Shown here: piece by piece, positions 10,406 through 28,600 of the stretch
Layout: the number at the start of each line of letters is the position of its first letter
Numbering within the stretch: the first letter of the stretch is position 1
NCBI GenBank assembly: GCA_020722765.1
Contig: DYKD01000008.1
Location: forward strand, 1,304 to 65,303
Source: Brevinema andersonii
GTDB taxonomy: Bacteria; Spirochaetota; DYKD01
DNA length: 64,000 nt
Direction of reading: 5' to 3'
Made by a program: the position numbers and the translations under genes
The notes under the pieces: model-generated
The model's database searches: none
What the model was told of the DNA's origin: nothing
What the model saw: only the letters and a program-made list of their open reading frames with translations

Positions 10406-12068
10406 GGGAAACAATCCTGTTAAAGACAGGTTTTTGGGAAGTGAAATCATCGTCAACAGAAAAATATCCTAACCTGAGAAACTGGAACTTTTCCCCAATC
10501 TGGGCATCTTTCAACGCAGGTTCTGCCACAGCCTTCTCATTCACAGACAAAGAAGCCGGATTTAGGAGATCCGTGAATTCCTTTCCTTCAGGCACATCGT
10601 CAGGATTCTCCTGCATAAATAAATGATCATATAGACGCACTTCGACAGTAACCCCATGCTGAGCTGACACCCAGTGAAGAGTCCCCTGTACGCGCCTGTT
10701 ATCTGCTGTCCCACCACCGCGCGACTCTGGATCATATTCACATCTGATTTCAACAATATTTCCATCCGCATCCTTCACGACATCCTTGCATGTCACATAA
10801 TAAGCATGCTTGAGACGGACTTCCTTGCCTGGAGCCAACCGGAAATATTTAGGTGGGGGGACTTCCTTGAAATCATCCTGCTCAATAAAAATTTCCCTGC
10901 AGAAGGGAACTTTCCGGGTTCCAGAAGAAGGGTCTTCTGGATTGTTCTCACAGTCAAAATACTCAACCTGGTCTTCCGGATAATTTGTTATTACAAGTTT
11001 CACAGGCTGAAGTACGACCATCAGACGTTTGGCTCTCTTGTTCAGATCCTCACGCAGGCAATGTTCCAACAAAGCGATGTCCACAATGGAATTTGCTTTT
11101 GCAACACCTATCCTCCCGCAAAAATCCCGGATGGATTCCGGAGTGTAACCTCTTCTCCTCAGACCTGCAATAGTGGGCATACGTGGATCGTCCCATCCCT
11201 GGACAAAACCTTTTGTTACAAGTGTAAGCAGTTTCCTCTTGCTCATGACTGTATAAGTGAGGTTGAGACGCGCAAATTCAAACTGATGAGGCTTCGTCTT
11301 CCCTTCCCATAACTCGTTAACAAACCAGTCATACAAAGGTCTGTGATCCTCAAACTCAAGCGTACAGATTGAATGCGTTACTTCTTCTATCGCATCAGAC
11401 AAGGGATGCGCAAAATCATACATGGGGTACAAGCACCATTTGTCACCTGTCCGTGGGTGTTCGGCTTTGACAATCCTGTAAATGACAGGATCCCTCATAT
11501 TGATATTCGGTGATGACATGTCAATCTTAGCCCTCAACACACGCATTCCTTCATCAAACTCACCTTTTCTCATACGTTCAAAAAGATCGAGATTCTCTTC
11601 AACACTCCTGTTCCGAAAAGGGCTTTCCTTGCCAGGCTTCACAAGAGACCCACGGTATTCCCTGATCTGATCAGCATTCAAATCACAGACAAAAGCTTTT
11701 CCCTTCTTGATAAGCTTCACAGCCATCTGATAGATTTGTTCATAATAATCAGAAGCATAATAAAGGTGTTTTCCCCAGTCAAAACCGAGCCACCGGACAT
11801 TGTCCTGTATGGAATCAATGTATTCGTTCTCTTCCTTGGCAGGATTCGTATCATCGAACCTGAGATGGCAACGGCCTTTGTAATCCGATGCTATCCCGAA
11901 ATTAAGACAGATTGACTTCGCATGTCCGATATGAAGATAACCGTTCGGCTCAGGAGGAAATCGCGTAACCACGGTATCCATTTTTTTTGCCGCCAGATCA
12001 TCCTCTATGATACTTCTGATAAAATCCCTGGATTTCAATTCAGGTTCTTTTTCGGTAAAGTCACTCAT
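10368..12068 (-). CDS. glnS: glutamine--tRNA ligase
   Basis: Class I aaRS with HIGH ([14 protein letters not shown]) and VMSKR (KMSKS-type) motifs. It is about 566 aa with a C-terminal anticodon-binding region typical of GlnRS. Confidence 0.8.
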
Positions 12069-12211
12069 GAAAATTTTCTCCTTATAAAATACGCTGATCA
12101 CAGCTCTTCATTTTTGTCCTCATTTTTTTTGGCTATGACCTTTTCTAGGAATTCTATATACATCCTATGTTAGGAATGATCCGCATATTTTCCTTCAATC
12201 CATCTCCTGGA

Positions 12212-13153
12212 TCAAAGATTGAAATTTATACCTGCATAAAAACGAAGTCCCTCATAATCACCTTTGACCACAGGGATGGAAAGTGCAAAAATCCCTTTCA
12301 ACCCTCTTACAAAACGGACAATCCCTCCGGTTGTCAGATCCAATTGTGTATGCTTCAGACAATAAGCAGTATTAAAAACCTGTAGCCCGTTCAGCTCCAG
12401 AAATATCTTATATCTGAAAATGACAGGCTTGCGTATCAGCCAGTAACTCAGATCGACATTATAGATGATATAATCATCCCTGAAAGGCCATTCACCATAC
12501 GAAGGCCCAGGCCAAAGAAATTTCAAAAAAATCCTGTGCAGATTGAAAAAATAGGATTTAGGGTTCGTCTTCGTATTCCAAGGGTCTTTGGTGATGGGAA
12601 GGAACGATTCCCCAGGATAGGACGCATAAACATAGATAAAATTAAGATACATCTCAAAATCCCCAGGGAATGAACCCAACAGGAATCCCCATCTCAAATC
12701 TTTCAAACCGTTCGAATAAGGAAAAAAGATTCCTTCATACTCGAATTGCTTCACACCAGTAGGATCATTAAACCCCAGATAAAAATTGGAGTAATACCTC
12801 GTGTCAGCCTTCTCCTGAAAAAAAGGAAACTTGAACCATCCCCGTCTTATTTGAAACCGCAAATCAATAAGGATATCACCTAAGGAAGTCTGTTGCATAA
12901 GCGACGGGTCAGTGACTCGGATAATGGGAATCCATCCTGAAAATTCAACCCTTCCGGTCAACCCAATCTGTGGCAAAATCACATATTCCCTAATCACCCG
13001 CGAATTTGTTATTCCTTGGAATTCAGTCAACATGAAACCTAGATTGAACCTGTCCGCATCAATACTATATGACTGTTTGGTAAGAATCTGACTATCGAGT
13101 AATCCGTATGAAAGAAAAAAAAGAATAAGGAAGTATGGAAAAGTCCTTTTCAT
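12212..13153 (-). CDS. putative outer-membrane beta-barrel protein
   Basis: Signal peptide MKRTFPYFLILFFLSYGL. The sequence is aromatic- and glycine-rich with alternating hydrophobic residues. The C-terminus ends GINFNL. Confidence 0.4.
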   Translation of the reverse strand: MKRTFPYFLILFFLSYGLLDSQILTKQSYSIDADRFNLGFMLTEFQGITNSRVIREYVILPQIGLTGRVEFSGWIPIIRVTDPSLMQQTSLGDILIDLRFQIRRGWFKFPFFQEKADTRYYSNFYLGFNDPTGVKQFEYEGIFFPYSNGLKDLRWGFLLGSFPGDFEMYLNFIYVYASYPGESFLPITKDPWNTKTNPKSYFFNLHRIFLKFLWPGPSYGEWPFRDDYIIYNVDLSYWLIRKPVIFRYKIFLELNGLQVFNTAYCLKHTQLDLTTGGIVRFVRGLKGIFALSIPVVKGDYEGLRFYAGINFNL

Positions 13154-13261
13154 CCTGTCCCCATAATAAAAGCTTTTCCGCCCTGCTTATCGTCACCTCT
13201 CCTTAGATCATCATGTTCAGGAGAGGTCAGACGATGAGTGACGGGGGGGATCCTGTAGAAA

Positions 13262-13609
13262 CTACCTGTTCACAGTCTCCACGATTTTCTTGAACACTGC
13301 TGGTTCACGTACTGCGATATTGGCAAGTATCTTCCTGTTGACCAGAACCTTTGCCACCCCCAGTTTCTTAATGAACTGGCTGTAGGAAAGTCCCAACTGG
13401 CGAACTGCCGCTCCAAGACGGATAATCCAAAGACCACGCATATCTCGTTTTTTACGTCTGCGATCCTTGTAAGCATCAGCTAATGCATGGAAAACCGCTG
13501 TCCTTGCAACACGGTAATTGTTCTTTCTGCGACCTCTAAAACCCTTGGCCAGTTTCAGGATCTTGTTTCTTCTGCTGTGGTGGGCAGGACCACTTTTTAC
13601 TCTTGGCAT
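13262..13609 (-). CDS. rplT: 50S ribosomal protein L20
   Basis: MPRVKSGPAHHSRRNKILKLAKGFRGRRK... is a canonical L20 sequence. Confidence 0.95.
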   Translation of the reverse strand: MPRVKSGPAHHSRRNKILKLAKGFRGRRKNNYRVARTAVFHALADAYKDRRRKKRDMRGLWIIRLGAAVRQLGLSYSQFIKKLGVAKVLVNRKILANIAVREPAVFKKIVETVNR

Positions 13610-13634
13610 GTTTTTTTCTCCTTATATTATCTGA

Positions 13635-13829
13635 TCAACATTCCAACATGCGACGTGTCCGGTTCTCGTCCGAATGATGGACAACGAGACCTTTCCGTAA
13701 CGCACGTTTGCGATCTTGATTCCTTTTTGTGAGGATATGTCTTCGATTCGCCCTTGTCCGCTTTATCTTACCGGACTTCAAAAGTTTGAACCGTTTCTTT
13801 GCTGCTTTAATGCTTTTCATTTTCGGCAT
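13635..13829 (-). CDS. rpmI: 50S ribosomal protein L35
   Basis: MPKMKSIKAAKKRFKLLKSGKIKR..., 64 aa, sitting between infC and rplT. Confidence 0.9.
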   Translation of the reverse strand: MPKMKSIKAAKKRFKLLKSGKIKRTRANRRHILTKRNQDRKRALRKGLVVHHSDENRTRRMLEC

Positions 13830-14382
13830 GGTTTGACTCCTTCTTCTTATTCTGCTTTTTTACTGGTACGAAAAGCGCCGAGTAGTTCCGTCCTTCCATG
13901 ATCGGGGACGACTCTATCGTCGCATAATCAGCCAGCTTTTCTATGATAATTTTCATCAGCTGCTCTCCAAATTCTCTATGCGTCATCTCACGGCCTTTGA
14001 ACATTACTGTCATCTTTACCTTGTCACCGTGTTGCAGGAAATCGATGGCGTTCTTGAGCTTGAACTCCAGATCGTGTTCCTGAGTCTGAGGCCTTACCTT
14101 GACTTCTTTCAGTTTTGCAACATGCTGCTTCTTCCTTGATTCCTTCACTTTCTTCTCGCGTACGAACTTGAACTTTCCATAATCCATGATCTTGCAGATA
14201 GGTGGCACTGCCTGTGGCTGAATCTCAACAAGATCGAGACCTGCCTCCAAAGCCCTCTGTAAAGCCACATCAATACTGAGGTCTTCTACCTTGCCATCAA
14301 GGTCAATCAACCGGATCTTGTTGTCCTGTGTCCGGATTTCGCGGTTTATCCGCTGTTCATTGCTTTTTTTGAAATTAGAAAT
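13807..14382 (-). CDS. infC: translation initiation factor IF-3 (probable AUU start)
   Basis: Shows the IF-3 N- and C-domain pattern (IRLIDLDGKVEDL...). The listed ORF begins at an internal TTG. A GGAGGA RBS followed by an in-frame ATT 24 codons upstream fits the known infC AUU start. Confidence 0.8.
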   Translation of the reverse strand: MSNFKKSNEQRINREIRTQDNKIRLIDLDGKVEDLSIDVALQRALEAGLDLVEIQPQAVPPICKIMDYGKFKFVREKKVKESRKKQHVAKLKEVKVRPQTQEHDLEFKLKNAIDFLQHGDKVKMTVMFKGREMTHREFGEQLMKIIIEKLADYATIESSPIMEGRNYSALFVPVKKQNKKKESNHAENEKH

Positions 14383-14398
14383 AACCGTCCTCCTTGGA

Positions 14399-16318
14399 TC
14401 AGCTTTTATTCTTGATCTCTTCCAAAACCATTTTTATGGCGTCTTCTATCTGCATCACTGTCTGTTCATCAGAATCACGTCTTCGCAGGTTGACAGTCCC
14501 CTGCTCAAGTTCCTTGTCTCCTATGACGAACATGACAGGAATCTTTCTCATCTGGCCTTCACGTATCTTGTATCCAAGCTTGTTGTCTGACAGATCAGCT
14601 TCAGCACGGACAAGAGAACCGACCAACTGGTCTCTCAGCTTTATAGCTGCGCCCATCTGCTTCTCGCCGATGGGAATGACTAGGACTTGCACAGGCGACA
14701 ACCATAACGGAAACTTTCCGCTATAGTGTTCAATCAGAGTTCCTACAAACCGTTCCATGGAACCCAGCACAGCCCTGTGAATCATGACCGGAACATGTTC
14801 CTTGCCATCATTTCCGATATATGTCATATTGAATCTGGAGGGGAGATTGAAATCTACCTGTATTGTCGGTCCTTGCCACTCACGACCGATCGCATCCACG
14901 AGCTTGATGTCAATCTTCGGACCGTAAAAAGCTCCACCGCCCTCATCCACGGAATATTCCACTTTATGATGTTCCATGGATTTCCGCAGTGACTCAGTCG
15001 CTTTTTCCCAAAGTTCAAGAGTTCCAACGTACTTTTCAGGTCTAGTGGAAAGCATCACTTTGACGTTTCCAAAACCGAATGTGGTCATCATGTATGATAC
15101 AAGTTCTAACACTCCCACAAGTTCGTTTTCAAGCTGGTCTTCACGGCAGAAGATATGGCCATCATCCTGCGTAAAACCACGGACCCTCAACATGCCATGA
15201 AGCACACCGGATTTCTCATAACGATAGACAGTCCCAAGCTCTGCCCATCTATAAGGCAAATCACGATAACTGCGTATGGCTGTCTTGTAGATCAATATAT
15301 GGAAAGGACAGTTCATAGGTTTGATGATGAAATCCGTTCCATCCACATCGATGGGAGAATACATGTTTTCCGTATAGTTTTCAAGATGACCGCTTATACG
15401 CCAGAGTTCTGAATTTGCAATATGAGGAGAATAGACAAGATGATAACCGCGCTTTGCATGCACTTCACGCCAGAATTGCTCTATCGTATCGCGGATGGCT
15501 GCGCCGTTAGGATGCCAGAAAATAAGACCAGGTCCTGCAGCATCCTGTATGCTGAACAGATCCAACTCTTTACCAAGCTTACGGTGATCACGCTTCTCAG
15601 CCTCTTCCATCCGTTTCTGATAATCCTTCCATTCCTGTTCAGAGGAAAACGCCTCTCCATAGATACGTTGAAGCATCTTGTTCTTCTCATTACCACGCCA
15701 GTATGCGCCAGCAACCTTGAGAAGCTTGATGAACTTCATCCTACCTGTGGAAACAAGATGCGGTCCACGGCAAAGGTCAAAAAAATCACCTTGATGATAA
15801 AAAGACACGACCGCATCAGGAATCTCTTCTATGATTTCGACCTTATAGGGATTCCCTTCATTTTTATAGATGGAAACCGCATCGGCTTTTGCAATCTCCT
15901 TTCTTGTGATTGCCATATTTTCCGAAATGATTTTCCTTATCTCTTCTTCAATCTTTGAAAAATCTTCCTCAGTGAACCTGTGTTCAGAATCAAGGTCATA
16001 GTAGAAACCATCATCAACAGAAGGACCGATAGTCAATTTTGTGGAGGGATACAAGCGCATGATAGCTTGCGCCATGATGTGGGAGGCAGTATGCCTATAA
16101 ACATCCTTGGCAGCCTTATCCTTTAGCTTCAAAAAAAGAATCTTGGAATCCGTGAGTAAAGAGGCGGAAAGATCTGACAAATGTCCGTTCACTTCAGCAA
16201 CAACAGTCTCTTTTTCCAATCCACGGCTTATGGAAGCAGCTATCTGCAGAGGTGTTGTGCCTTTTAGGAATTCCTTCTTGTTTCCATCCGGGAATTCAAT
16301 GAGAATGTTTTCTGACAC
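14399..16318 (-). CDS. thrS: threonine--tRNA ligase (GTG start)
   Basis: 639 aa with an N-terminal TGS domain, a class II catalytic core and a C-terminal anticodon-binding domain. It is in the conserved thrS-infC-rpmI-rplT order. Confidence 0.9.
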   Translation of the reverse strand: MSENILIEFPDGNKKEFLKGTTPLQIAASISRGLEKETVVAEVNGHLSDLSASLLTDSKILFLKLKDKAAKDVYRHTASHIMAQAIMRLYPSTKLTIGPSVDDGFYYDLDSEHRFTEEDFSKIEEEIRKIISENMAITRKEIAKADAVSIYKNEGNPYKVEIIEEIPDAVVSFYHQGDFFDLCRGPHLVSTGRMKFIKLLKVAGAYWRGNEKNKMLQRIYGEAFSSEQEWKDYQKRMEEAEKRDHRKLGKELDLFSIQDAAGPGLIFWHPNGAAIRDTIEQFWREVHAKRGYHLVYSPHIANSELWRISGHLENYTENMYSPIDVDGTDFIIKPMNCPFHILIYKTAIRSYRDLPYRWAELGTVYRYEKSGVLHGMLRVRGFTQDDGHIFCREDQLENELVGVLELVSYMMTTFGFGNVKVMLSTRPEKYVGTLELWEKATESLRKSMEHHKVEYSVDEGGGAFYGPKIDIKLVDAIGREWQGPTIQVDFNLPSRFNMTYIGNDGKEHVPVMIHRAVLGSMERFVGTLIEHYSGKFPLWLSPVQVLVIPIGEKQMGAAIKLRDQLVGSLVRAEADLSDNKLGYKIREGQMRKIPVMFVIGDKELEQGTVNLRRRDSDEQTVMQIEDAIKMVLEEIKNKS

Positions 16319-16419
16319 CTTGACCTCGCAAAATAGATGATGGTTGATTGTAGATAGAGGATAGGCGCTCTACACCAGGATTCCAGCTATCAACCATCAA
16401 CGATTCACAATTCACCATG

Positions 16420-16492
16420 TGGGCGATACAGGGTTCGAACCTATGACATCCTGGTTGTGACCCAGGCACTCTACCAACTGAGTTAATCGCCC
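16420..16492 (-). tRNA. tRNA-Val (anticodon CAC)
   Basis: Manual fold of the reverse complement shows a GGGCGAT/ATCGCCC acceptor stem, a TCAGTTGGTAGAG D-loop, a CCTGG/CCAGG anticodon stem with loop GUCACAA, and a GGTTCGAAC T-loop. No CCA is encoded. Confidence 0.75.
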
Positions 16493-16569
16493 TCTTAGCG
16501 GATAGATGATGGAAGATAAAAGATACTCTTTTTCGACTATCTACTATATGCCATCGACCATCTACAATA

Positions 16570-16642
16570 TGGGCGATACAGGGATCGAACCTATGACCTT
16601 CTGTACGTCAAACAGACGCTCTCCCAGCTGAGCTAATCGCCC
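16570..16642 (-). tRNA. tRNA-Val (anticodon GAC)
   Basis: The reverse complement has acceptor GGGCGAT/ATCGCCC, D-loop TAGCTCAGCTGGGAGAGC, anticodon stem TCTGT/ACAGA with loop UUGACGU, and T-loop GGTTCGATC. Confidence 0.75.
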
Positions 16643-16657
16643 AAATAAGTGGAATTT

Positions 16658-17002: not shown

Positions 17003-17031
17003 TTGACAAAAGGTTAAAAAATGATTATAAT
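17003..17031 (+). promoter_or_regulatory. sigma70 consensus promoter upstream of the ompA-family gene
   Basis: TTGACA (17003-17008), a 17-nt spacer, then TATAAT (17026-17031). Confidence 0.6.
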
Positions 17032-17090
17032 GTAAACATAAAGTTTATTTATTGTTAATTTTATACGAAATAAAGGGACATGAAAAAATT

Positions 17091-17116
17091 TGTTCTGACA
17101 GTTTCTTGTCAGAACA
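17091..17116 (+). promoter_or_regulatory. perfect 10-bp inverted repeat in 5' UTR (TGTTCTGACA-N6-TGTCAGAACA)
   Basis: Perfect palindrome immediately upstream of the RBS (AAAGGTGG) of the 17134 gene. It could be an operator or an RNA hairpin. Confidence 0.4.
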
Positions 17117-17133
17117 AAAGGTGGTAATATAAT

Positions 17134-18507
17134 ATGAAGAAGATTCATGTTGTTGTCTTTTTTTTGGTTACAGTTGGAATTCTTACAGTTTCTATGGCTG
17201 ACAACAAGATAGAAGAAGCTAAAAAACTATATAACGAAGGATTAAAATATTATTTAAAACGGGATTTCAAAAACGCCTCACAAGAATGGAATAAGGCATT
17301 GCTTCTTGATAATGAAAATGAGAAAATCAAAGAGTATCTTGACAAAGCCCAGTCTAAATACTATGAATCCTTACAGTTATTTTTTCAGGGCCTTGACGAC
17401 TTCAAACGAGGAAACTATCCAGCCGCTGAAAAGGCATTCCAGGACTCTTTGCTTATCAATCCACTTGATGAAAAGGCAATGTATTATCTCCGGTTATGTT
17501 CTGTTCCAAAAGTAGAGCTTGCTAATACAGATCCTGTTGTAACTGCAAATCAGACTTTTGAAATAACATCTTCTATTAATAAGGAAACCACCGTCCCTGA
17601 CTGGATCGAGAAATGGGAACTTGATTTTTTTGACTCTAAGAAAAAAATCAAGACTATTACCGGACTTTTAGACCCGCCTTCTAAACTGACAGTTGATTTG
17701 CGTGACATCGCAGAAACCCTTTCTGAAACGGAAAAAATAGACTACTCCATGACCCTCATATCCATATATGGAAGGACACACATTGTTTCAACCAATTTCA
17801 TAAAGACAGACAACAAGGGACCGGAAATAACAGTTTCCTCCCCTTCCAATTTTTCGCCAGACACCCTGACAGGACAAAGCAACAAGCTGAATATCAGTTT
17901 CAATGTCAAAGACAAATCAGGTCTCACTAATGTTATTTTACAAATTTACAATGAATCACAGGACAGGATGCTTGGAAGCTTTCCTATAAAAAATCTCAAC
18001 AATTTTCTATGGGACGCACACATCGCTGATGGCTCAAGAATCTCTGGCGGAACAGTCATTTATTACAGGATCAAAGCCATAGACCGGCTGATGAACGAAT
18101 CCCAATCCCCTTTTAAGCGAGTTAGCACTTCGATTGTACTTCAAAAAAGAGAAGACAATACCGTTGCTATGAATCTCCCAAACATAGAATTTGAATTTGG
18201 AAAAGCGAATCTACTGAAATCCTCCTTTACAATTCTAAACAGGGTGGGAGCCATTTTGACTGCATATTCCAATTCTAAATTTGCAATTGAAGGACATACT
18301 GACAATATTGGATCAAAAGACAGAAATATCATATTGTCAAAAATGCGTGCAGAATCTGTTTCAAAATATTTGCAAGATCATTTCAATCTCGGTAATGACC
18401 GTATGATAATCAAAGGCTATGGCGATTCAAAGCCCAAGTTTCCAAATAATACCGAAGAAAACAGAAAGCGCAATCGTCGTGTGGAGGTTGTCATCCTTAA
18501 CCAATAG
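17134..18507 (+). CDS. OmpA-family protein with N-terminal TPR-like region (PorE-like architecture)
   Basis: Signal peptide, TPR-like helices, a middle beta-rich region, and a C-terminal OmpA_C domain (KFAIEGHTDNIGSKDRNIILSKMRAESV...NRRVEVVI). Confidence 0.75.
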   Translation: MKKIHVVVFFLVTVGILTVSMADNKIEEAKKLYNEGLKYYLKRDFKNASQEWNKALLLDNENEKIKEYLDKAQSKYYESLQLFFQGLDDFKRGNYPAAEKAFQDSLLINPLDEKAMYYLRLCSVPKVELANTDPVVTANQTFEITSSINKETTVPDWIEKWELDFFDSKKKIKTITGLLDPPSKLTVDLRDIAETLSETEKIDYSMTLISIYGRTHIVSTNFIKTDNKGPEITVSSPSNFSPDTLTGQSNKLNISFNVKDKSGLTNVILQIYNESQDRMLGSFPIKNLNNFLWDAHIADGSRISGGTVIYYRIKAIDRLMNESQSPFKRVSTSIVLQKREDNTVAMNLPNIEFEFGKANLLKSSFTILNRVGAILTAYSNSKFAIEGHTDNIGSKDRNIILSKMRAESVSKYLQDHFNLGNDRMIIKGYGDSKPKFPNNTEENRKRNRRVEVVILNQ

Positions 18508-18706
18508 TCCTATTCCTTTTCAGCTTTGATTGTTTCTGCCATATGTGTCACACCCTCCAAGCTAAAAAAGAATGACAAAGCATAGAACAATATCAGAATT
18601 GTTCCATGAAAAGGATTGCATTAACAATCCATTCGAATGGCTTAAAAAAGATCTTATGGTGTCATAATCGTGCTATGACGACCTATTAGGACTTGAAGGA
18701 GACTTT

Positions 18707-21700
18707 ATGTTTACAAAAAATATGAAAATAATATTTTTGCCTGTTGCACTGCTTGTTTATGCAAATATTTCCTATGGACAGTTTATGACAAATACTCCTG
18801 CAACATCAATATTAGAATTTAGCGTATTTGCAACCGCTAGTAATATGACGTCCATGGTGAGTAATGTCGTCATGACCAATAAGGTTGCCAGCAATTATGG
18901 GGGGCGTTTATTAACGATTTCCACGGATAGGGCAGCTATTATCCTCTTGAAGACTAATAAGACAACAAATTATCTGAAAAATTTAGGCAACCACGATGAT
19001 ACATTCAGATTGCGAATTATTAAGACAAATCTCAGTGTGGCTGGCCTTAAATTCAGATATTGGTTTGAGGATATTAATGGAATAAAAATAAGCAATTTAG
19101 GCCCAATCCCACGTCATTCTACAAACAAGTTCAAATTTAATGTTGTTTTTTCCAATGGGAACATGCCAAATCATGTTGAATTCCGTCTTGGTGCCCAGTC
19201 AATGATGGGAATGAACACATTTTCCACAGCCTACACAGGTGATTACAATGCCATCAAATATGGAGGGGATATTGGGAAATCAGGATTAAAAGGGGTTGTT
19301 CCTCAAACAAATGCGCCCTATCAGAATGACAGCTTCATAAGATTTTCAATAGGAGATAACACTCCGCCAACCTGGGTTACGTTATACAAGCCTTACACGA
19401 ATACGTATACTAATAATACAACAGTCTATTTCTGTTGGGGAAAAGCCAGCGATCTGGAGAGTGACATAGCTGGATATCAGATTGAAGTGGATGATGATCC
19501 AAGTTTCGCATTCCCTGAAAAATCATCAAATATAGTTGACTCCACAATAACAAACTGTACGTTGACATTGACAGAAGGATTGAAATATTGGCGCGTGCGG
19601 GCACTGAATGGTGCAGGCATGTATAGTACTACGAATAGGGTATGGAATTTCAAAATTGACACAATTTTACCAACAGCACCGCTCCTAGTATTTCCCAAGA
19701 ACAATACATGCACGAACAACGGATCATTGAACATCAGATGGACGAAGTCGTCAGATGCAGGAAGCGGAATATCAAACTATCATGTTGTCATGTCATCGAA
19801 CAACTGGTCAAGCACACAGAGAAGCATGTGGTCAGGCAGCAGTGGAACAACGAATATAGTACTGGTACTAGGTAACAGCTTATGGAGATGGAAAGTGCTT
19901 GCAAAAGATAAGGATGGTAACATCGGGCTATACAGTGGTGTGAGTAACTTCACTGTTGATACACTCGCACCCAATGCACCCACCTTGTCAGTGCCACTCA
20001 ACAATGTGATGACGAATACGGGAGTCCTCTCGTTCAGGTGGAATAAGACAACAGACAACGGATTGGCTGGAATCACGAACTATCATATCGTGATGTCATC
20101 GAACAACTGGATTTCCACACAGAAAAGTGTCTGGTCAGGCAGCAGTGAAACCACAAACATAGCCTTGACACTCGGTAACAGTCTGTGGAGATGGAAAGTC
20201 ATAGCAAAGGACAAGGCAGGAAACACAAACATTTCAGCTGTTTCCACTTTCATCATTGATACACAAGCCCCCAATGTTACACTCTTGAGCAGTCCTTCGA
20301 ATAACACGATGACAAATACCGGCAACATCACTTTCAATTGGTATAAACCTCTTGATAATGGCTTGACAGGCATTTCCAATTACATGTTGATCATATCTTC
20401 CAATAATTTCGTATCAACACAGAGAAGCTACAATGTGATTGGAAGCAACCAGCTCAGTTATGTCCCTGCTCCCTTGAGTGCGGGAGTCTGGACATGGAGA
20501 GTGGCAGCTGTCGACAAAGTGAACAATGTCGGAACATGGAGTGCTGTGTGGACAAACACAATAGATCTTATCGTTCCTTCAATTTCCTTGATTTCACCCA
20601 CAAATCAGTCCATCCTGGATATGACAAATGTGACTCTCCTGTGGAGTTCAAGCGATGATTTGACTGGTGTAACAGAGACTACTCTTGCAGTCTATACAAA
20701 CGGTGTAAATTACATACTTACAAATCTCCTTGTATCAACCCAGTATGTTGATGTCTTTACTGGTACAAACTATACCTGGAGAGTTCGTGTCCAGGATAAA
20801 GCTGGAAATACGAACTGGAGCGTTTTGAATGCTTTTCGCATACGGCTTGCAGACCACATGCCACCAACCGCTGTCAGTCTGATAGGACCAACGAATCATA
20901 GTTGGACTTCAAACCTCCAGAGTTCTTATGGTTGGACAAGATCTACAGACTTAAGCGGAACTGTTACAAATTACAGGATTGAACTCTCTACAGACAATTT
21001 TATGACTGTTGTCATTGCTTCAAATATCACTACGACTAATGCAGTTGTTTCTGTGACAGGTGAGGGGTCATGGTACTGGAGAATCTGGAGTTTCGATGCT
21101 TCTGGAAACAGCAATGTTTCCATGTCTTTTACGAACAATATTGACAGGACAGCACCCTTTATCTCACTCTTAACCCCATCAGACAACGGATTGCTCCTGC
21201 AGAATGATGTCACATTCAATTGGAGTGCCAATGATGGATTAGGTATTGGAGTCCAGGATTATCTGCTTCAAATAAGTGCCGATGATTTTGTGACAGTTTT
21301 TAAATTTACAAATCTCACAGGAACAGCCAGCCAGCTCACATTGACAAACGACACTTGGCAGTGGAGAGTCAGGGCCGTTGATCAGCTTGGAAATGCACGT
21401 TACTCTGTAACAAACACTTTCGAAGTGAGACCCTATTTCGCTTCTGTTACTGGAAATATCCGTGTCACTGATGGAGTCCATGACATAGTGATTGGAAGTT
21501 CATCAGCAGACACCAATCAGCGGGTGGCAGGAAATACGGGAGTGAAGATTTTTATCCCTATGGGAGGCGATGTCAATCCTTCCAGTTCTATACAAATCTA
21601 TTACACCTTGGACGGATCAATTCCGATGACAAATGTCAATCCTCTTACGGCAACCTGGAATGGGACAATGTGGCTGGTAGACATTCCTGATGCTATCACC

Positions 21701-22102
21701 ATAAATTCTGTTGGCAATGTTTTCAAATTCAGAATCATGGCTGATGGATATTCTATCACTAACAGCATGACCGCTGATAACTCATGGGGTTTCAGGATCG
21801 CTGAGATTGAAGAACAGCAGAACAGCATCACTGTGATACCGACAATCATGGATTCTGCTTCGGGTGTGCCGTTGAGTATTATTTATAAGACAACAAAGAA
21901 GACCCGGGTTTTCGTATCCGTTTATAATATAAGCGGAGATCTTGTGAGAAACATCGTGGATGAGACGCAGGATGCAGACACTTATGTGGCTCATTGGGAT
22001 GGCAGGAACATCAGGGATCAGGAGGTAGGTGGAGGAATCTACTTCATCATTGTCAAGTTCGATGATGATCGTCCTGCGATCAGAAAGGTGGTGGTAAAAT
22101 GA
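18707..22102 (+). CDS. large secreted protein with 7 Fn3-like repeats and T9SS-type C-terminal sorting domain
   Basis: Signal peptide present. A motif (W-x-W-R/K-V-x-A-x-D-K-x-G-N) recurs 7 times in roughly 100-aa units. The C-terminus (...HWDGRNIRDQEVGGGIYFIIVKFDDDRPAIRKVVVK) resembles the Por_Secre_tail / FlgD-Ig-like CTD. Confidence 0.6.
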   Translation: MFTKNMKIIFLPVALLVYANISYGQFMTNTPATSILEFSVFATASNMTSMVSNVVMTNKVASNYGGRLLTISTDRAAIILLKTNKTTNYLKNLGNHDDTFRLRIIKTNLSVAGLKFRYWFEDINGIKISNLGPIPRHSTNKFKFNVVFSNGNMPNHVEFRLGAQSMMGMNTFSTAYTGDYNAIKYGGDIGKSGLKGVVPQTNAPYQNDSFIRFSIGDNTPPTWVTLYKPYTNTYTNNTTVYFCWGKASDLESDIAGYQIEVDDDPSFAFPEKSSNIVDSTITNCTLTLTEGLKYWRVRALNGAGMYSTTNRVWNFKIDTILPTAPLLVFPKNNTCTNNGSLNIRWTKSSDAGSGISNYHVVMSSNNWSSTQRSMWSGSSGTTNIVLVLGNSLWRWKVLAKDKDGNIGLYSGVSNFTVDTLAPNAPTLSVPLNNVMTNTGVLSFRWNKTTDNGLAGITNYHIVMSSNNWISTQKSVWSGSSETTNIALTLGNSLWRWKVIAKDKAGNTNISAVSTFIIDTQAPNVTLLSSPSNNTMTNTGNITFNWYKPLDNGLTGISNYMLIISSNNFVSTQRSYNVIGSNQLSYVPAPLSAGVWTWRVAAVDKVNNVGTWSAVWTNTIDLIVPSISLISPTNQSILDMTNVTLLWSSSDDLTGVTETTLAVYTNGVNYILTNLLVSTQYVDVFTGTNYTWRVRVQDKAGNTNWSVLNAFRIRLADHMPPTAVSLIGPTNHSWTSNLQSSYGWTRSTDLSGTVTNYRIELSTDNFMTVVIASNITTTNAVVSVTGEGSWYWRIWSFDASGNSNVSMSFTNNIDRTAPFISLLTPSDNGLLLQNDVTFNWSANDGLGIGVQDYLLQISADDFVTVFKFTNLTGTASQLTLTNDTWQWRVRAVDQLGNARYSVTNTFEVRPYFASVTGNIRVTDGVHDIVIGSSSADTNQRVAGNTGVKIFIPMGGDVNPSSSIQIYYTLDGSIPMTNVNPLTATWNGTMWLVDIPDAITINSVGNVFKFRIMADGYSITNSMTADNSWGFRIAEIEEQQNSITVIPTIMDSASGVPLSIIYKTTKKTRVFVSVYNISGDLVRNIVDETQDADTYVAHWDGRNIRDQEVGGGIYFIIVKFDDDRPAIRKVVVK
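19680..20580 (+). repeat. intragenic tandem ~300-bp repeats (3 copies, first two near-identical)
   Basis: DNA segments around 19770-20070 and 20070-20370 are highly similar (both contain NYH(V/I)VMSSNNW..TQ(R/K)S.WSGSS.TTNI.L.LGNSLWRWKV.AKDK.GN). A third, more diverged copy follows. The minus-strand shadow ORFs 19780..20076 and 20083..20379 mirror each other. Confidence 0.7.
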
Positions 22103-23382
22103 AAAAACTATTGATAATCACTCTTTTATTCTCTGTCTCTTTGGTCAATGCTGAAGTCCTCACAACAGGAGCAGATTTTCTTAAGATTACCCTTGGTGGA
22201 AGGAACGCAGGAATGGGAGAGGCAACTGGCGCCATTAGCGATGATATAGAGGCGTTGAGTGTGAATGTTGCCGGCATCTCACGTATTAAGCGGATGCAAT
22301 TCCTGTACGAACATTCAGAATGGTTTGAAAGCGTCAATTATGAGGGGTTTGCCGCAGCCATACCACTCGATTATATTGTCCCTGGCCGCATCCTGCCCGG
22401 TGTTGTTGCTGTTGGATATCAGCTGCTCTATATCCCGCAGTCACAATTCCCTAACTATGATGATTGGGGTCTCCTCCTGCCAAGCAACATCGGATTCAGT
22501 AGCTTCAAGCTAAGTACAGGATATGCTTTGGGTGTTTTCCAGAATAACTGGATCTATCTCTCAGCAGGTGGTACAATTGCAGTCGTAGGCAAGAAAGTGC
22601 AGAACGGTGATACTGATCTTGTTGGTCAATCCAAGCCAGGCATCGATCTTGGACTCACATCTGTGATATCCCACAACGACCCGAGATTAAAAAAATATAT
22701 AGGAGAGACGTTCAATGCATCTCTCCTCGTCCAGAACATCGATTTTCTCCAGTCTGGCGTCAATGAGAGTCTTCCCTTTCAGATACGGGCAGGGCTTGGT
22801 TTCAGGATTTATAATCTTGTTAACCTGGGTTTTGAAGGCTTGAAATATATTGACACTCCCTTCAGATTCAACATCGGTCTTGAAGGATGGATTAAGGATT
22901 TAGTTGCGATTCGTGCAGGAACAAAGCTTGGTTCCGACCAGTTGAGCCATTTCAACCTTGGTTTTGGAGTCAAGTATAAAATAAAGAAAACCAAGCTTGC
23001 TATGGATTATGCTCTTGTTCCTTTTGAGCACCTCGGCATGACGCATCGGTTTACACTTAAGGCTGATGTGGGTAAGATGACCATAACAATCCCAGATAAG
23101 ACGGATATCATGTATTATAGGGGAGTTGATTATTTTATCCAGAGTGATTATGAGAACGCTATTGAGATGTGGGAAAAAGTCCTTAAAAAAAATCCCGGTC
23201 ATCTGAAATCCAAAAATCGGCTAAAAGAAGTCCAAAAAATCATCAAATACCAGGAAAAAGAGAAAGAGTTAAAGGACCTCCAAAATCGTTTTGAACAATA
23301 TCAATTGGAACAACAGAAAAAAGACAACATTATCAGAGAAAAATCTTCCAACAAAAAAATGAAACAAAATCATAGGAAATAG
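22099..23382 (+). CDS. PorV/FadL-like outer-membrane beta-barrel protein with C-terminal TPR/lysine-rich tail
   Basis: Signal peptide. The N-terminal signature GADFLKITLGGRNAGMGEATGAISDDIEALSVNVAGI matches the PorV/PorQ-type barrel motif (ARxxxMGGA...DD..A...NPAG). Its start overlaps the upstream stop (ATGA). Confidence 0.5.
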   Translation: MKKLLIITLLFSVSLVNAEVLTTGADFLKITLGGRNAGMGEATGAISDDIEALSVNVAGISRIKRMQFLYEHSEWFESVNYEGFAAAIPLDYIVPGRILPGVVAVGYQLLYIPQSQFPNYDDWGLLLPSNIGFSSFKLSTGYALGVFQNNWIYLSAGGTIAVVGKKVQNGDTDLVGQSKPGIDLGLTSVISHNDPRLKKYIGETFNASLLVQNIDFLQSGVNESLPFQIRAGLGFRIYNLVNLGFEGLKYIDTPFRFNIGLEGWIKDLVAIRAGTKLGSDQLSHFNLGFGVKYKIKKTKLAMDYALVPFEHLGMTHRFTLKADVGKMTITIPDKTDIMYYRGVDYFIQSDYENAIEMWEKVLKKNPGHLKSKNRLKEVQKIIKYQEKEKELKDLQNRFEQYQLEQQKKDNIIREKSSNKKMKQNHRK

Positions 23383-23435: not shown

Positions 23436-23822
23436 TCAAATTCCACCCTTTGACATTATTTTCGAGAAAACCCTGTCCATAACCTTCATGGAGTTACGGC
23501 GAAGCTGACATTCCCAAATGGTCATCACAGACCAACCAAGACGGCGCAACTGCCGTATACATTTCCTGTCACGCTCCCTATTGCTCTCAATCTTCTTCTT
23601 CCAAAACGCTTTCCTTGACTTTGGCATCCTAAAAATCTTGCATCTGCTATGGCCATGCCAGAAACATCCATTTATGAAAAGAATCAATTTTTGTGCTGGC
23701 AGGACAATATCAGGAGTTCCAGGCAGAGATTTTTTATTTGCGGAAAACCTGATCCCGTTCTTTCGCAGGATGCTTTTCACGATCCTCTCAGGTTGCGTGT
23801 TCTTCCCCCTGATCCGGCTCAT
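23436..23822 (-). CDS. vsr: very-short-patch-repair endonuclease Vsr
   Basis: MSRIRGKNTQPE...PDIVLP...FINGCFWHGH...W.VMTIWECQL is a canonical Vsr sequence. The ORF extends to 23879, but the internal ATG is the likely start. Confidence 0.85.
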   Translation of the reverse strand: MSRIRGKNTQPERIVKSILRKNGIRFSANKKSLPGTPDIVLPAQKLILFINGCFWHGHSRCKIFRMPKSRKAFWKKKIESNRERDRKCIRQLRRLGWSVMTIWECQLRRNSMKVMDRVFSKIMSKGGI

Positions 23823-23853
23823 TATGTAGGAACGCTTCTCCGCAGTGAAAATA

Positions 23854-25335
23854 TCAACCATGCCGCATGTTACCTGCAAGACGGGCAGTCAGACAAGCGG
23901 TTTTCGTGGAACCAAAACCGACATTCAATGAGCGTCTCATCCTCAACTGGTCTCCCTTAAAATGAAAACTTGTTTTTTGGATGAATGGTGTTTCAAACAT
24001 ACATGTTGTTACAACCAGGATATCTTGCCGGATCCAGGCATACCTGCATCTTACAGACACTTCCTTTTCTGTCCTCATTCCAGGAATGCCTGCCGACATG
24101 AACAACCCGGAAGGCATAAATTTTTTTCTGCCCCAATCCTCATATCCACATGAAATCAGGAAGACTTTCCCGTTTTTCTCAAATACAATCTCCAAATCTT
24201 TTTTCTTATTTCTGAACATGATAGTCTGAAACAACCTGTCATTCTTTTTGAAAATAAATTCCCTTCCCATCATTTTTCCCTGCCAAGGGGAACTTTTCAA
24301 ACCAGTCACAGAATCCAACATCAAGGATTTCTCTTTTTTTCTAAGAAGCTGAAGGGATTTCTTATCAATCTCTTTTTTCAAAGAAGAAATTCCCGGTAGA
24401 ACCGTTTTCCAGAATGACTTCAGTATTCCACCCATGTTAGGGATACCTGCAGTACAAATAAAAACCGTATCTAAGTCAGACATCACTACACAATACTGGC
24501 CGAAAGCGCCATCCCCCCTGTAAAAACCATGTGTGCAACGCCAGAACTGATATCCATATCCTTGCGCCCAGTCATTAGCTGGATCTGCCGCTGGATCTCC
24601 TGTCTCAACCTGTTTTGATGTGGCTTTCTCAATCCAAGATTCAGGAACCAACTTTTTCCCATGCCAAGTTCCTTTCCAGAGACATAACAGACCGAATTTT
24701 GCAATATCCTCAGTTGTCAAAGACAAACCCCATCCACCTGTATTGATTCCTGCTGGGCAGGAATCCCATGTTAACTTCCCAAATCCCATAGGATCAAACA
24801 ACCTTGTTTTCAAATATTGGACAAGTGTTTCTCCTGTCACTTTCTGCAAAATCGCAGATAACATATATGTAGCACAGCTGTTATATGTGAATTTTGTTCC
24901 TGGTCGATGTTCCACTGGAAGATTAAGAAATTCTTTTACCCAATCTTTTGAAATGACAACCTTTCCTGTAGTATCAATTTCATGTCCCGTTGTCATTGTC
25001 AGAAGATGCCTGATTGTCATCTCCTGTAGATGGGCAGACGGATTTTCAGGGACCTTATCTGGAAAAAAGGAGAACACCCTATCTTCTATCGAAAGTCGCC
25101 CTTCATAAATTGCCAGACCTGTTGCTATTGAAGTGAAACTCTTGCTCAATGAATTCAAAAGATGCACTGTTCCAGATGCATAGGGCTTCCACCAGCCTTC
25201 AGAAACAACTTTTCCATGCCTCAACAACATGAAACTATGCAAACCAAGTTTTTTCGTAGTTTCCAAAAACTTGAGTATTGAACGTGAGGAGATTCCTTCT
25301 ATTTCAGGTACAGACCTGGGTATTTTAGTTTTCAA
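23854..25335 (-). CDS. serine hydrolase, beta-lactamase (class C/EstB-like) family
   Basis: Carries the S-x-x-K motif (SLSKSF) in the expected N-terminal position. Overall similarity is to the beta-lactamase/transpeptidase-like fold, and the protein is 493 aa. Confidence 0.7.
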   Translation of the reverse strand: MKTKIPRSVPEIEGISSRSILKFLETTKKLGLHSFMLLRHGKVVSEGWWKPYASGTVHLLNSLSKSFTSIATGLAIYEGRLSIEDRVFSFFPDKVPENPSAHLQEMTIRHLLTMTTGHEIDTTGKVVISKDWVKEFLNLPVEHRPGTKFTYNSCATYMLSAILQKVTGETLVQYLKTRLFDPMGFGKLTWDSCPAGINTGGWGLSLTTEDIAKFGLLCLWKGTWHGKKLVPESWIEKATSKQVETGDPAADPANDWAQGYGYQFWRCTHGFYRGDGAFGQYCVVMSDLDTVFICTAGIPNMGGILKSFWKTVLPGISSLKKEIDKKSLQLLRKKEKSLMLDSVTGLKSSPWQGKMMGREFIFKKNDRLFQTIMFRNKKKDLEIVFEKNGKVFLISCGYEDWGRKKFMPSGLFMSAGIPGMRTEKEVSVRCRYAWIRQDILVVTTCMFETPFIQKTSFHFKGDQLRMRRSLNVGFGSTKTACLTARLAGNMRHG

Positions 25336-25670: not shown

Positions 25671-28600
25671 TTGTCCAACGAAAACACAAATCCCAAGCAT
25701 GAGGAAGCCATTGGTATCTGCCTCGGTGCTTCCACATTTTCCATGGTTCAGATCGAAAAAGACGGTCATGACATAAAAGTCAAAAACATCACCATTGATG
25801 AACACAATGGCGATCCCAAAGGAACATTTTCCAAACACCTTGACCAGCAGGATTTGAATGGCAAGTACATAGCTATCACAGGAAGGAAGTTCCGTGAAAT
25901 AACAAATATTCCCTCACTCATAGAACCAGAAGCAACAGAAATCGCGTACCGCCATCTTACACATGGCCACAAGAAACATGATGCCATTGTCTCAGCTGGT
26001 GGCGAAACATTCATCGTATATGAGATTGACAATAAAGGAAAAGTATCCCGCATCAGTTCTGGAAACAAATGCGCTTCAGGAACAGGAGAATTTTTCTTGC
26101 AGCAGATCAGGCGTATGAACGTCTCCATTGGAGAAGCGGTTGAACTCGCCCGCTCTTCTAAAAAACCACATGAACTTTCTGGCAGATGTTCCGTATTCTG
26201 CAAATCGGACTGTACTCACGCATTAAACAAGGGTGAAAGCATTGCAGATGTTGCTGCTGGTCTTTCCCAAATGATCGCAAAAAAAATCGATGAGCTCCTT
26301 GTCAAGATAGGTGCCAAGAAAGTTCTCATAGTTGGCGGAACAGCACAGAACGATGTAGTCATCAACCTTGTAAGGAAGAATTTTGAAAAGGTGGACACTC
26401 CCAAAGAAGCACCCTATTTTGAAGCTTTGGGCGCGGCTCTTTGGGCCATGGAAAAGAAACAGGACAAAATCCCTGAAAAAGGGGATTACTTTAAAGAGCT
26501 CAAATCCTCTTTTGAAAAGCTCAAACCTCTCTCTGAATTTCTCCCCATGGTAGATTTTAAAGAGATGCCTTTTGAACAAGCACAGGAGAACGATGAATGC
26601 ATCATTGGGTTAGATGTTGGTTCGACAACTACAAAGATCGTACTTCTCCGTACTTCAGATGAAAAGATTTTGGTTGCCAAATATTTGCGCACGAATGGAA
26701 ATCCCATTGAAGCGTCCAAACAATGTTATGCTGCTGTCATAGAACAGCTTGGTCATGTCAACGTCAAGATCATAGGCTTGGGCGTTACAGGTAGCGGACG
26801 TTATATTGCTGGTCTTCATGCCGAGACAGAAGGCATCATCAATGAAATCATAGCCCATGCAAAAGCCGCTGCGCATTTCGACAATGGCGTGGATACGATT
26901 TTTGAAATTGGTGGACAAGACGCTAAATACACTCATCTCACAAACGGAGTCGCTTCCGATTATGCCATGAACGAAGCGTGTTCAGCAGGAACGGGAAGTT
27001 TTCTTGAAGAATCCGCCTTCGAAACACTCAATGTTAAGATGGAAGACATCGCCCCCATTGCGTTAAAAGCAGATTCTCCGCCCAACTTTTCTGATCAATG
27101 CGCTGCATTCATATCTTCGGACATAAACACAGCATTACAGGAAGGTATAAGCAAAGAGAATATCATAGCAGGACTTGTCTATTCCATCTGTATTAACTAT
27201 GTGAATCGCGTCAAGGGATCACGGCAAACAGGACACAAGATTTTCATGCAGGGGGGGGTCTGTTACAACAAGGCTGTTCCCGTAGCGATGGCAGCTCTCA
27301 CAGGAAAGACAATCATTGTGCCTCCACATCCAGGACTCATGGGTTCCTATGGCGTTGCACTTGAAGTGAAGGACATGATTGAGCTTGGCTTTCTACACAA
27401 AAAAGGATTTAACTTAAAAGACTTAGCACACAGAGATGTCACATACGGAAAACCTTTCATTTGCCAAGGTGCGGCTGAACACTGTGACCGCAAGTGTGAA
27501 ATCGCCATGATCAATATCAACAATAAAAAATTCCCTTTTGGTGGAGCTTGCAACAAGTATTACAACGAGATTCACAAAGTTAAATATGATATAACACAAC
27601 TGAATCATATTGAAACAAGACAAAAACTACTCTACAATACTTTTGTTACACCAAGTCCAGACATCAAACCAGATGCCAAAGTTGTTGGTATCAACAGATC
27701 TTTCCATACAAATACACTCTACCCCATGTACTTCAATTTTTTCAATGCACTCGGCTTGAAAGTCATCTTGCCCGATTCTGTACAGCATGAAGGGGTTGAT
27801 AAAGGCATGACAAGTTTTTGTCTCGCAGGTCAGATTGCACTTGGCATGTTTGATGATCTATTACGGAAAAATCCAGACTACGTTTTTGTTCCCCACATAA
27901 AAGAGATGCATGTTTCAGAACAAAAAGAATACCGCATTGAATATCAGACAACATGTATGTTCGTACAGGGAGAACCATGGTATCTACGTGCCACTTTCCT
28001 TCGCGACAAAGAAAATCCTCCCAAACTGATTGCGCCTGTCCTCAATTTTATGGCAGGCTTTGATAAAGAAGAGAAACAATTTATCAAGATTGCAGAAGAT
28101 CTCGGCTTCAGTGCAGCAGAAGGGGAAAAGGCCCATAAAATCGCTTTCCAAAAACAGCAGGAATTTTTCAAAGCCATGAAAGAGGAGGGTTCTCGTATCC
28201 TCAAAAAACTTGAAGAAGATCCAGAGAAACGTGCCATTGTCCTTTTTGGACATCCTTACAGTGCTTTTGCAGACGAAGCGAATAAAGGGGTCCCCTTCAA
28301 ATTTGCCTCTCGCGGTATTGAAATTATTCCTTTCGATTTCCTCATGTATGAAGATGAAGAAAACTATAAGAACACCTATTGGGAAATGGGACAACGCATC
28401 ATCAAGGCAGCACGAATTGTCAAACGTCATCCCCAACTCTTCGGATGTTATCTTACAAACTTCCTTTGCGCTATCGATTCGTTTATGGTGCCACATTTTC
28501 GTGACCTCATGGGAACAAAGCCATCCTTGACTATTGAAGTCGATTCTCACACAGCTGATGCAGGCGTCAACACCCGTATTGAAGCATTCATGGATGTGGT

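Follow-up and report, generated by a model that had tools for sequence, protein, structure and literature searches.

Introduction

Why would a protein with a sorting-type C-terminal domain (CTD) be encoded together with an outer membrane barrel of its own? The question is raised by three consecutive plus-strand genes in a 64,000-nt stretch of DNA assigned to Brevinema andersonii (assembly GCA_020722765.1, contig DYKD01000008.1, forward-strand positions 1,304 to 65,303; hereafter the window). The open reading frames (ORFs) encode a protein with tetratricopeptide repeats (TPR) and an OmpA_C domain (ORF1, 17134-18507, 457 aa), a large repeat protein with a C-terminal domain resembling those of type IX secretion system (T9SS) substrates (ORF2, 18707-22102, 1131 aa), and a barrel protein of PorV/PorQ type (ORF3, 22099-23382, 427 aa); these coordinates agree with those of an initial annotation made from the sequence. 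Studies of T9SS regard PorV as a shuttle used in common and the CTD signal as characteristic of Bacteroidota or, more broadly, of the Fibrobacterota-Chlorobiota-Bacteroidota (FCB) group. We consider it likely that the trio is a cognate carrier/anchor cassette, displaying a very large adhesin- or surface-layer-like protein. The annotated sequence matching the window is a 68-kb contig of GCA_973314595.1, in which the window lies at about positions 1390-65389, and a 22-kb contig of JGI metagenome 3300000227 is almost identical.

Cargo and Barrel Genes Are Coupled in the Window and in Related Loci

The junction of ORF2 and ORF3 is as tight as the initial annotation had read it: the ATG of the barrel gene (22099-22101) shares the letters ATGA with the stop codon of the cargo gene (22100-22102), and an AAGGTGG Shine-Dalgarno-like motif lies 5' of the ORF3 ATG. 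The same annotation regarded the coupling of a CTD cargo to its own PorV-like barrel as unusual, a view that related loci and published precedents (PMC9143113, PMC12618676, PMC5562754) contradict. Loci were retrieved through the barrel alone, in one scan of 185,579 species-representative genomes with one N-terminal peptide pattern, which samples one PorV-like barrel subfamily. The scan gave 33 loci (L007-L039), whose barrels share 23-35% identity with ORF3 in the best aligned segment. Metagenome-assembled genomes (MAGs) with related loci are labelled Elusimicrobia/Endomicrobiales, candidate division FCPU426, Spirochaetia, Brevinematales, Deferribacteres, Gemmatimonadota, Marinimicrobia or unclassified.

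In 28 of these 33 loci, the barrel gene is immediately preceded, at 0-300 nt and on the same strand, by a tail-bearing gene; two others could not be assessed because the barrel is at or near a contig edge. The upstream cargo ORFs range from about 190 to more than 3300 aa, and their last ~85 residues belong to a common tail family. Only seven non-adjacent tail matches were found in the 33 loci, an estimated ~3% of the remaining ORFs, which speaks against chance as the source of the adjacency. The tails of L011, L015, L016, L027 and L037 were outside the training set of the tail hidden Markov model, yet they too adjoin barrels. Overlaps of the 4-nt ATGA type between cargo and barrel genes occur in at least 12 loci, going by longest-ORF start calls. 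Adjacency was also seen in every close-homologue locus that was fetched (P0003, P0004, P0005 and P0007; L003, L006, L040 and L041/42), and in a Marinimicrobia locus whose barrel is named a "PorV/PorQ family protein" by NCBI. In these gene neighborhoods, the coupling of cargo and barrel is thus a conserved rule for the barrel subfamily of ORF3.

Several cassettes can be arrayed in a single genome. In L016 (Elusimicrobia bacterium LH_S2), for example, three PorV-like barrels are encoded within 15 kb (3-14960), at least two of them with an upstream tail cargo, and the first barrel is fused to an Ig-OmpA part. The cargos of L030, L031 and L037 are longer than 3100-3300 aa and are cut off at the contig start; their barrels are fused to Fn3 domains, and a common seven-gene block starting with a GAF-HD protein follows downstream (L031 and L037 are labelled Spirochaetia, and L030 "uncultured bacterium"). 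When 1.84 billion representative proteins were searched with a profile, 271 clusters passed E <= 1e-30 and 4486 passed E <= 1e-10, with many members of 600-700 aa; the 12,765 clusters at E <= 1e-3 are inflated by TPR-only matches.

ORF3 Is a Probable PorV/PorQ-Family Barrel

The ORF3 protein begins with a signal peptide, followed by an N-terminal plug that contains the conserved motif GADFLKI..GGR..GMGEA, and its barrel domain covers approximately residues 22-324 (nt 22162-23070). The PorV/PorQ model NF033709 aligns over profile positions 1-325 of 326 (E 1.7e-23), with 83.7 bits for the whole protein and 85.1 bits for the barrel alone (cut-off 90). A structural model (AlphaFold2, AF2) built on 13 homologues has a mean predicted local distance difference test (pLDDT) score of 81.9, with 14 strands at residues 66-324 (DSSP) and a plug segment containing short helices. 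When this model was compared with the PDB by Foldseek, the best matches were the PorV chains of SprA translocon complexes (8gl6_F, 7.2e-12; 6h3i_F, 9.1e-10), with FadL (2r88, 4.3e-8), TodX and TbuX behind (4e-8 to 1e-5). The PorV/PorQ likeness proposed at the outset is thus borne out by a match across the full profile and by the rank of PorV above FadL among known structures.

The family assignment is clearer for the relatives. Among 38 related barrel domains, PorV_fam matched all 38 (best 3e-62), PorV 37 and PorQ 35 (best 2.3e-39); UPF0164 matched 23 (E <= 0.001, best 2.3e-11), Pfam PorV 11, FadL/Toluene_X 7, and PorP/SprF 4. ORF3 itself has no Pfam match to FadL/Toluene_X (PF03349), and its identification as a FadL transporter is rejected on the strength of the fold search, of the counts of PorV/PorQ (38/38) against FadL (7/38) matches, and of the gene linkage. 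ORF3 is therefore best read as a 14-strand barrel of the PorV/PorQ family and not as a FadL transporter. Within this family it is not an orthologue of canonical PorV or PorQ, as its scores to the equivalog models (NF033710, 25.1 bits; NF033711, 14.2 bits) are far under the cut-offs of 250 and 220. PorP/SprF can also be rejected, since TIGR03519 gave no match to ORF3 at E <= 1 and matches only weakly in four of the 38 relatives.

The matches to UPF0164 deserve separate mention. In ORF3, PF03687 reaches 16.9 bits (gathering threshold 21.4) and aligns with residues 28-82 only; UPF0164 is recorded for the ORF3 homologues P0004, P0005 and P0007. The barrel of L009 (1608-3239) scores above threshold for both UPF0164 (41.8 bits) and PorV (PF19572, 42 bits), and appears by these scores to bridge the Treponema "FadL-like" family and PorV. 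These family matches suggest a link between PorV and UPF0164, as a lead drawn from profiles.

Beyond the barrel, ORF3 carries a TPR and a long Lys-rich helix at residues 334-426 (nt 23098-23376; TPR match at 337-368); the region is helical in the AF2 model and would be periplasmic. The initial annotation described this extension correctly and considered it atypical; the latter does not stand, as the extension is kept in all seven close homologues (P0002-P0008, 36-47% identical) and has a parallel in Treponema pallidum.

The End of ORF2 Resembles a Type A CTD

ORF2 has a signal peptide, with a predicted cleavage at ...SYG/Q (by eye), and an N-terminal domain of approximately residues 25-220 without a family match. 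These are followed by seven Fn3/Ig-like repeats of ~100 aa (residues 221-905, nt 19367-21421), each of which closes with W-x-W-[RK]-[VI]...D..GN, and by a beta-rich region (906-1043) ahead of the tail. The Fn3-repeat cargo recognized by the first reading of this DNA can thus be located repeat by repeat, and the family matches of the repeats are weak (Ig_Rha78A_N, Big_13, fn3, Big_7 and CHB_HEX_C_1). The protein is rich in Thr, Asn and Ser (31% together) and contains three Cys. Ten related cargos contain FG-GAP, Big_1, Big_5, fn3, CARDB and DUF11 repeats and no enzyme domain. A PorU-like sortase was considered as the identity of the cargo and rejected, as ORF2 and the ten related cargos match neither peptidase C25 nor other enzyme families.

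The C-terminal domain of ORF2, a putative sorting/anchoring domain, occupies residues 1044-1131 (21836-22099, plus strand) and ends with ...IRKVVVK. Submitted alone as a 110-aa query, it narrowly passed the thresholds of TIGR04183 (23.8 bits, cut-off 23) and FlgD_ig (27.2 bits, cut-off 27), and reached 17.3 bits for PF18962 (cut-off 27). Within the whole protein, the matches at residues 1054-1131 were all sub-threshold (FlgD_ig 24.5 against 27, TIGR04183 19.2 against 23, CHU_C 17.1). The assignment is clearer in an alignment of 25 tails of the family (A3), in which 21 match TIGR04183 (best 1.2e-10), 23 FlgD_ig, 19 PF18962 and 12 CHU_C. In addition, 19 of the 25 match the model of PorZ and 18 that of PorU, and the window tail falls in the C-terminal ends of those profiles. 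The tail profile searched against the PDB likewise found the Ig domain of FlgD, the C-terminal ~100 residues of PorU (6za2) and the C-terminal ~80 residues of PorZ (5m11). The domain stops at the last residue in nearly all members, and most tails in A3 have a K/R pair just before the end and a final K or R. We therefore assign the ORF2 tail, from sequence comparison, to the T9SS type A CTD/FlgD_ig family, borderline for the single sequence and clear at the level of the family; the Por_Secre_tail-like end that had been proposed for ORF2 is supported on the same terms.

A word-indexed homologue search with the C-terminal 232 aa (21407-22102) returned no matches, which reflects the sensitivity limit of the index and not biology; full-length ORF2 is itself a cluster representative in the collection searched. 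A single-sequence AF2 model of the tail has seven strands, with a pLDDT of only 55.8 that makes it unreliable. Elsewhere in the window there are no further tail-bearing or PorV-like genes.

ORF1 and the OmpA Domains That Accompany the Barrels

The third component, ORF1, is a predicted periplasmic cell-wall tether. Its signal peptide, read by eye, lacks a lipobox Cys, and is followed by a TPR region (~residues 30-120, nt 17221-17493; Pfam TPR_2, 30.6 bits at residues 30-62), two Ig-like domains (~130-330) bearing a WDG...G.Y motif, and a peptidoglycan-binding OmpA_C domain (residues 353-448, nt 18190-18477; Pfam OmpA, 74.1 bits). Both middle domains are FlgD_ig-like, and the second (residues 242-316, nt 17857-18081) is, by profile comparison, homologous to the tail family of the cargos (hhalign probability 83%, E 8.6e-6). 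A pairwise comparison (E 3e-5) shows a likeness between the first TPR of ORF1 and that of ORF3, and the two proteins might be in contact through these repeats.

With its N-terminal TPR, Ig-like middle and C-terminal OmpA_C domain, ORF1 is similar in layout to PorE (P. gingivalis PG1058) and to Leptospira Lsa66. The initial annotation saw an echo of PorE in this architecture, which is sound for the TPR and OmpA_C parts and otherwise a loose likeness only. The PorE model NF052230 reaches 53 bits (cut-off 600) through the OmpA_C part alone (residues 344-436), and unlike PorE, ORF1 has neither a TolB-like beta-propeller nor a lipoprotein signal, so that an identity with PorE is ruled out. The NCBIfam model Lsa66_OmpA aligns with residues 168-452 at 59 bits (cut-off 700).

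OmpA_C domains accompany the barrels in more than one arrangement. The OmpA_C gene is an upstream neighbor in the window and lies downstream, with a 4-nt overlap, in L006 and L040, while L012, L016, L018, L019 and L032 have the domain as a C-terminal fusion to the barrel. The fused part in L016, L018 and L032 is Ig-Ig-OmpA and can be aligned with ORF1 (alignment A4). Other barrels end in TPR (L009, L029), two to three Fn3 domains (L014, L020, L031) or CBM48 (L010), and in L007 and L008 a translationally coupled gene for a TPR protein follows the barrel gene. As OmpA_C is either a neighbor of the barrel or fused to it ("Rosetta-stone" linkage), we propose that ORF1 may serve as a periplasmic tether for ORF3.

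Promoter, Leader and Transcript Layout

A perfect sigma-70 consensus promoter (TTGACA-17-TATAAT, 12 of 12 matches, plus strand) is predicted at 17003-17031, about 100 nt 5' of the ORF1 ATG, in agreement with the initial reading of the trio. Between this promoter and the ORF1 ATG, the 5' leader contains a perfect 12-bp inverted repeat, TTTGTTCTGACA...TGTCAGAACAAA (17089-17118), which was scored as a terminator-like hairpin on the minus strand by prediction and might act as an operator or, in RNA, form a regulatory hairpin. Overlapping this repeat is another promoter, near consensus (17106-17133, 11 of 12 matches). Divergent from the cassette, on the minus strand, are two tRNA-Val genes (CAC, 16419-16492; GAC, 16569-16643), which have a promoter with a perfect TTGACA-17-TATAAT and a TG extension (16686-16658).

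ORF1 and ORF2 are separated by a spacer of 199 nt (18508-18706), with two hairpins (18581-18608 and 18613-18630) that have no T-run on the plus strand and an AAGGAG Shine-Dalgarno motif 5' of the ORF2 ATG. Shine-Dalgarno-like motifs are present 5' of all three ORFs. Because no plus-strand terminator is predicted between the cassette genes, it is plausible that ORF1, ORF2 and ORF3 share one transcript. The two hairpins at 18581-18630 could then be a processing or attenuation site that sets unequal levels of tether and cargo.

Proposed Function and Comparison with Known Systems

In the cassette that we favor, ORF2 would be exported by Sec as a surface protein of the adhesin or S-layer type, and translational coupling would have ORF3 made in step with it and in matched amounts. 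The extracellular loops of ORF3 would bind the ORF2 tail and hold the cargo on the cell, and the TPR/helix extension of ORF3 together with ORF1 would fasten the barrel to peptidoglycan, giving a fixed, wall-anchored complex. For passage across the outer membrane, the cargo would presumably depend on a translocon of the SprA type, provided that the genome encodes one at another locus. It is the gene linkage, with the tail gene upstream in 28/33 loci, that points to binding between CTD and barrel, and the pairing itself is modelled by analogy on PorQ-PorZ, PorV-PorU and SprF-SprB.

In Porphyromonas gingivalis, PorU and PorZ retain their CTDs and are held at the surface by PorV and PorQ, forming stable PorU-PorV and PorZ-PorQ pairs (PMC5562754), and the extracellular loops of PorV are the binding site for type A CTDs (PMC10994853). 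The likeness to the cassette is that a barrel of the PorV/PorQ family holds one protein by a retained type A-like CTD, and it is reflected in the matches of the tails to PorZ (19/25) and PorU (18/25) and of the related barrels to PorQ (35/38). By contrast, the cassette cargo is an Ig/Fn3-repeat protein and not a sortase or a carrier of anionic lipopolysaccharide (A-LPS), the barrel has a periplasmic TPR extension (OmpA, Fn3 or CBM48 in other loci), and the genes are translationally coupled and found far beyond Bacteroidota.

The logic of a cargo with a cognate barrel, often with an OmpA-type tether, is shared with SprB-SprF and other type B clusters of Flavobacterium johnsoniae. In those clusters, the genes of type B CTD cargos adjoin cognate PorP/SprF genes, six of which lie beside porE-like genes, and non-mobile cargos were proposed to be wall-anchored through PorP-PorE-like complexes (PMC9143113, PMC12618676). 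The families, however, differ: the cassette barrel is PorV/PorQ and not PorP/SprF (TIGR03519, 4/38), its tail is type A/FlgD_ig-like and not type B (CHU_C is weaker, 12/25), and ORF1, compared with PorE of the type B clusters, has no beta-propeller and no lipid anchor. Canonical PorV (F. johnsoniae Fjoh_1555, P. gingivalis LptO) has the fold and the N-terminal motif in common with ORF3 and is its best structural match, but serves many substrates and has no periplasmic extension; NF033710 gives ORF3 about 25 bits against a cut-off of 250.

It is worth noting that the UPF0164 proteins TP0548, TP0859 and TP0865 of Treponema pallidum are 14-strand barrels with a C-terminal periplasmic helical TPR extension that was called novel (PMC8407342). 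Unlike our reading of ORF3, these proteins are interpreted as importers of fatty acids or other hydrophobic nutrients and have no reported CTD partner. Overall, the parts of the cassette are known, namely a type A-like CTD, a PorV/PorQ-family barrel and an OmpA_C tether, and we found no description of a one-cargo-one-barrel PorV/PorQ cassette with TPR/OmpA/Fn3 extensions across non-Bacteroidota lineages.

Alternative Explanations

Several observations weigh against the proposed cassette. The tail within full-length ORF2 falls below the cut-offs of TIGR04183 and FlgD_ig, a fold search with the low-confidence tail model gave no match below E 1e-3, and ORF3 is slightly under the curated cut-off of NF033709. 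Three of the 33 loci (L028, L033 and L038) have no adjoining tail gene, and the related MAGs carry the phylum labels given by their submitters. T9SS genes are normally scattered across genomes, and the finding of no T9SS core gene, such as those of the SprA/Sov translocon, the PorK/N ring, the PorL/M motor or the PorU sortase, on the annotated parts of the 68-kb contig is for this reason weak evidence. Two rival readings set the carrier role aside altogether, both of them with little in their favor. ORF3 might be a FadL/TodX-type hydrophobic importer, with the tail a generic Ig-like domain and the adjacency without functional meaning. PorV does belong structurally to the FadL superfamily, the Foldseek matches to FadL, TodX and TbuX are significant (E 4e-8 to 1e-5), UPF0164, whose Treponema members are read as importers, matches 23/38 barrels and Toluene_X seven, and a survey of Brachyspira outer membrane proteins read a PorV/PorQ-family protein as FadL-like (bioRxiv 10.1101/2025.01.03.631275). 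However, PorV structures rank first for ORF3, PorV/PorQ models match every one of the 38 barrels as against seven for FadL, and an importer would leave the tail-gene adjacency in 28/33 loci, the translational coupling and the OmpA/TPR/Fn3 fusions unexplained, which makes this reading highly improbable. We regard as equally remote the reading in which the locus stabilizes the envelope by tying the outer membrane to peptidoglycan, in the manner of Tol-Pal or PorE, and in which the barrel and the OmpA/TPR parts form the core and ORF2 is a periplasmic or structural partner and not a cargo. It draws on the CpoB-like TPR and Pal-like OmpA_C of ORF1, on a reinterpretation of PorE as an outer membrane-peptidoglycan tether (PMC12204202), and on the tail-homologous Ig domain of ORF1, according to which tail-like domains can be periplasmic; but the cargos are hugely variable adhesin-type repeat proteins of up to >3300 aa, as is typical of surface proteins, many cassettes have no OmpA, and known CTDs bind extracellular loops of PorV (PMC10994853).

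A more serious alternative keeps the pairing of cargo and barrel and dispenses with the T9SS. Where SprA and PorKLMN are absent, the cassette alone, perhaps with the beta-barrel assembly machinery (BAM), would bring the cargo to the surface and anchor it there, an arrangement that we consider doubtful. Similarly doubtful is its evolutionary corollary, that CTD-PorV recognition is older or broader than T9SS and was recruited later by the T9SS of Bacteroidota. The occurrence of the cassette in MAGs labelled Elusimicrobia, FCPU426, Spirochaetia, Brevinematales and Deferribacteres argues for such an arrangement, as reviews confine T9SS to Bacteroidota or the FCB group (PMC7463736, PMC12398890) and a full-text search of the literature for T9SS or PorV in Elusimicrobia or spirochaetes turned up no paper that reports the system there, the one related item being the Brachyspira survey. 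The tight 1:1 translational coupling also fits a stoichiometric two-partner design. Neither the annotated parts of the contig nor the annotated flanks of the related loci, of about 10 kb, contain a T9SS core gene, and among ten genes downstream of related cassettes there are TPR/HEAT proteins or housekeeping functions and no such gene; this absence is seen at the level of contigs and loci. Against autonomy, a plugged 14-strand barrel has no known means of passing a protein of 1100 to >3300 aa, tail proteins without a barrel of their own in L012, L023 and L028 point to a shared general route, and the cassette is also present in FCB members expected to have T9SS (Gemmatimonadota L023, Marinimicrobia L043). 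Either the host range of T9SS is wider than described or, which we think the less probable of the two and unlikely in itself, the cassette works without T9SS.

Lineage Markers and Neighboring Genes

The initial annotation spoke of spirochete-type flagellins at about 35 kb and took them to suggest a lineage in which T9SS would be unexpected. The genes are present, as two tandem flagellin genes of ~285 aa (34937-36720, plus strand) with fliD adjoining (block 34937-39254), and the motif MIINHN at or near their N-termini is suggestive (in the upstream ORF as listed, MEEE precedes the MIINHN start). ThrRS gives no support to a spirochete lineage: its closest named homologues, only ~55% identical, belong to a wide range of phyla, and the best 120 include no spirochete. 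Ten window proteins are in singleton or tiny 90% clusters. A 331-aa ORF following fliD (39274-40269) has no Pfam match.

Convergent with ORF3 is a gene for a Vsr-type very-short-patch repair endonuclease (23436-23879, minus strand; 141 aa), which matches PF03852 on the JGI contig and is unlisted on the NCBI contig; the gene tables of the flanking ~10 kb show no cytosine methyltransferase partner. Further downstream on the plus strand, a 1447-aa polypeptide (25671-30014) combines BcrAD_BadFG ATPase domains with DUF2229 and has the look of a fused activator/dehydratase-type protein, and a small gene at ~32501-32806 encodes an Imm53-family immunity protein (PF15580), with no toxin-family gene in the surrounding ~10-kb gene table. 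On the minus strand, the product of 42120-43175 pairs BamD/YfiO-like TPR with a C-terminal SPOR domain, an unusual combination that makes it the second TPR-peptidoglycan-binding envelope protein of the window. A cluster at ~52500-60400 (minus strand) encodes HydF, a radical-SAM maturase, a NifU_N/ParA/CbiA fusion, two CbiA/ParA-ferredoxin ATPases, small Nitro_FeMo-Co proteins and DUF5320, and therefore points to an anaerobe that matures [FeFe]-hydrogenase.

Implications

The locus of the window and some 40 related loci represent a distinct and widespread design, in which each giant adhesin-like protein is encoded with a PorV/PorQ-type barrel of its own. If the lineages that carry it also possess a machine of the SprA type, T9SS has a wider range of hosts than is known so far, and the cassette would be a type A counterpart of the SprB-SprF principle. 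If they have none, the pairing of CTD and carrier exists without T9SS, which bears on how T9SS evolved. The UPF0164 "FadL-like" proteins of Treponema pallidum are being pursued as syphilis vaccine antigens, for which the cassette offers an alternative function that can be tested. Should the autonomous system prove true, which at present we hold to be rather improbable, these vaccine candidates might be protein anchors instead of lipid importers.

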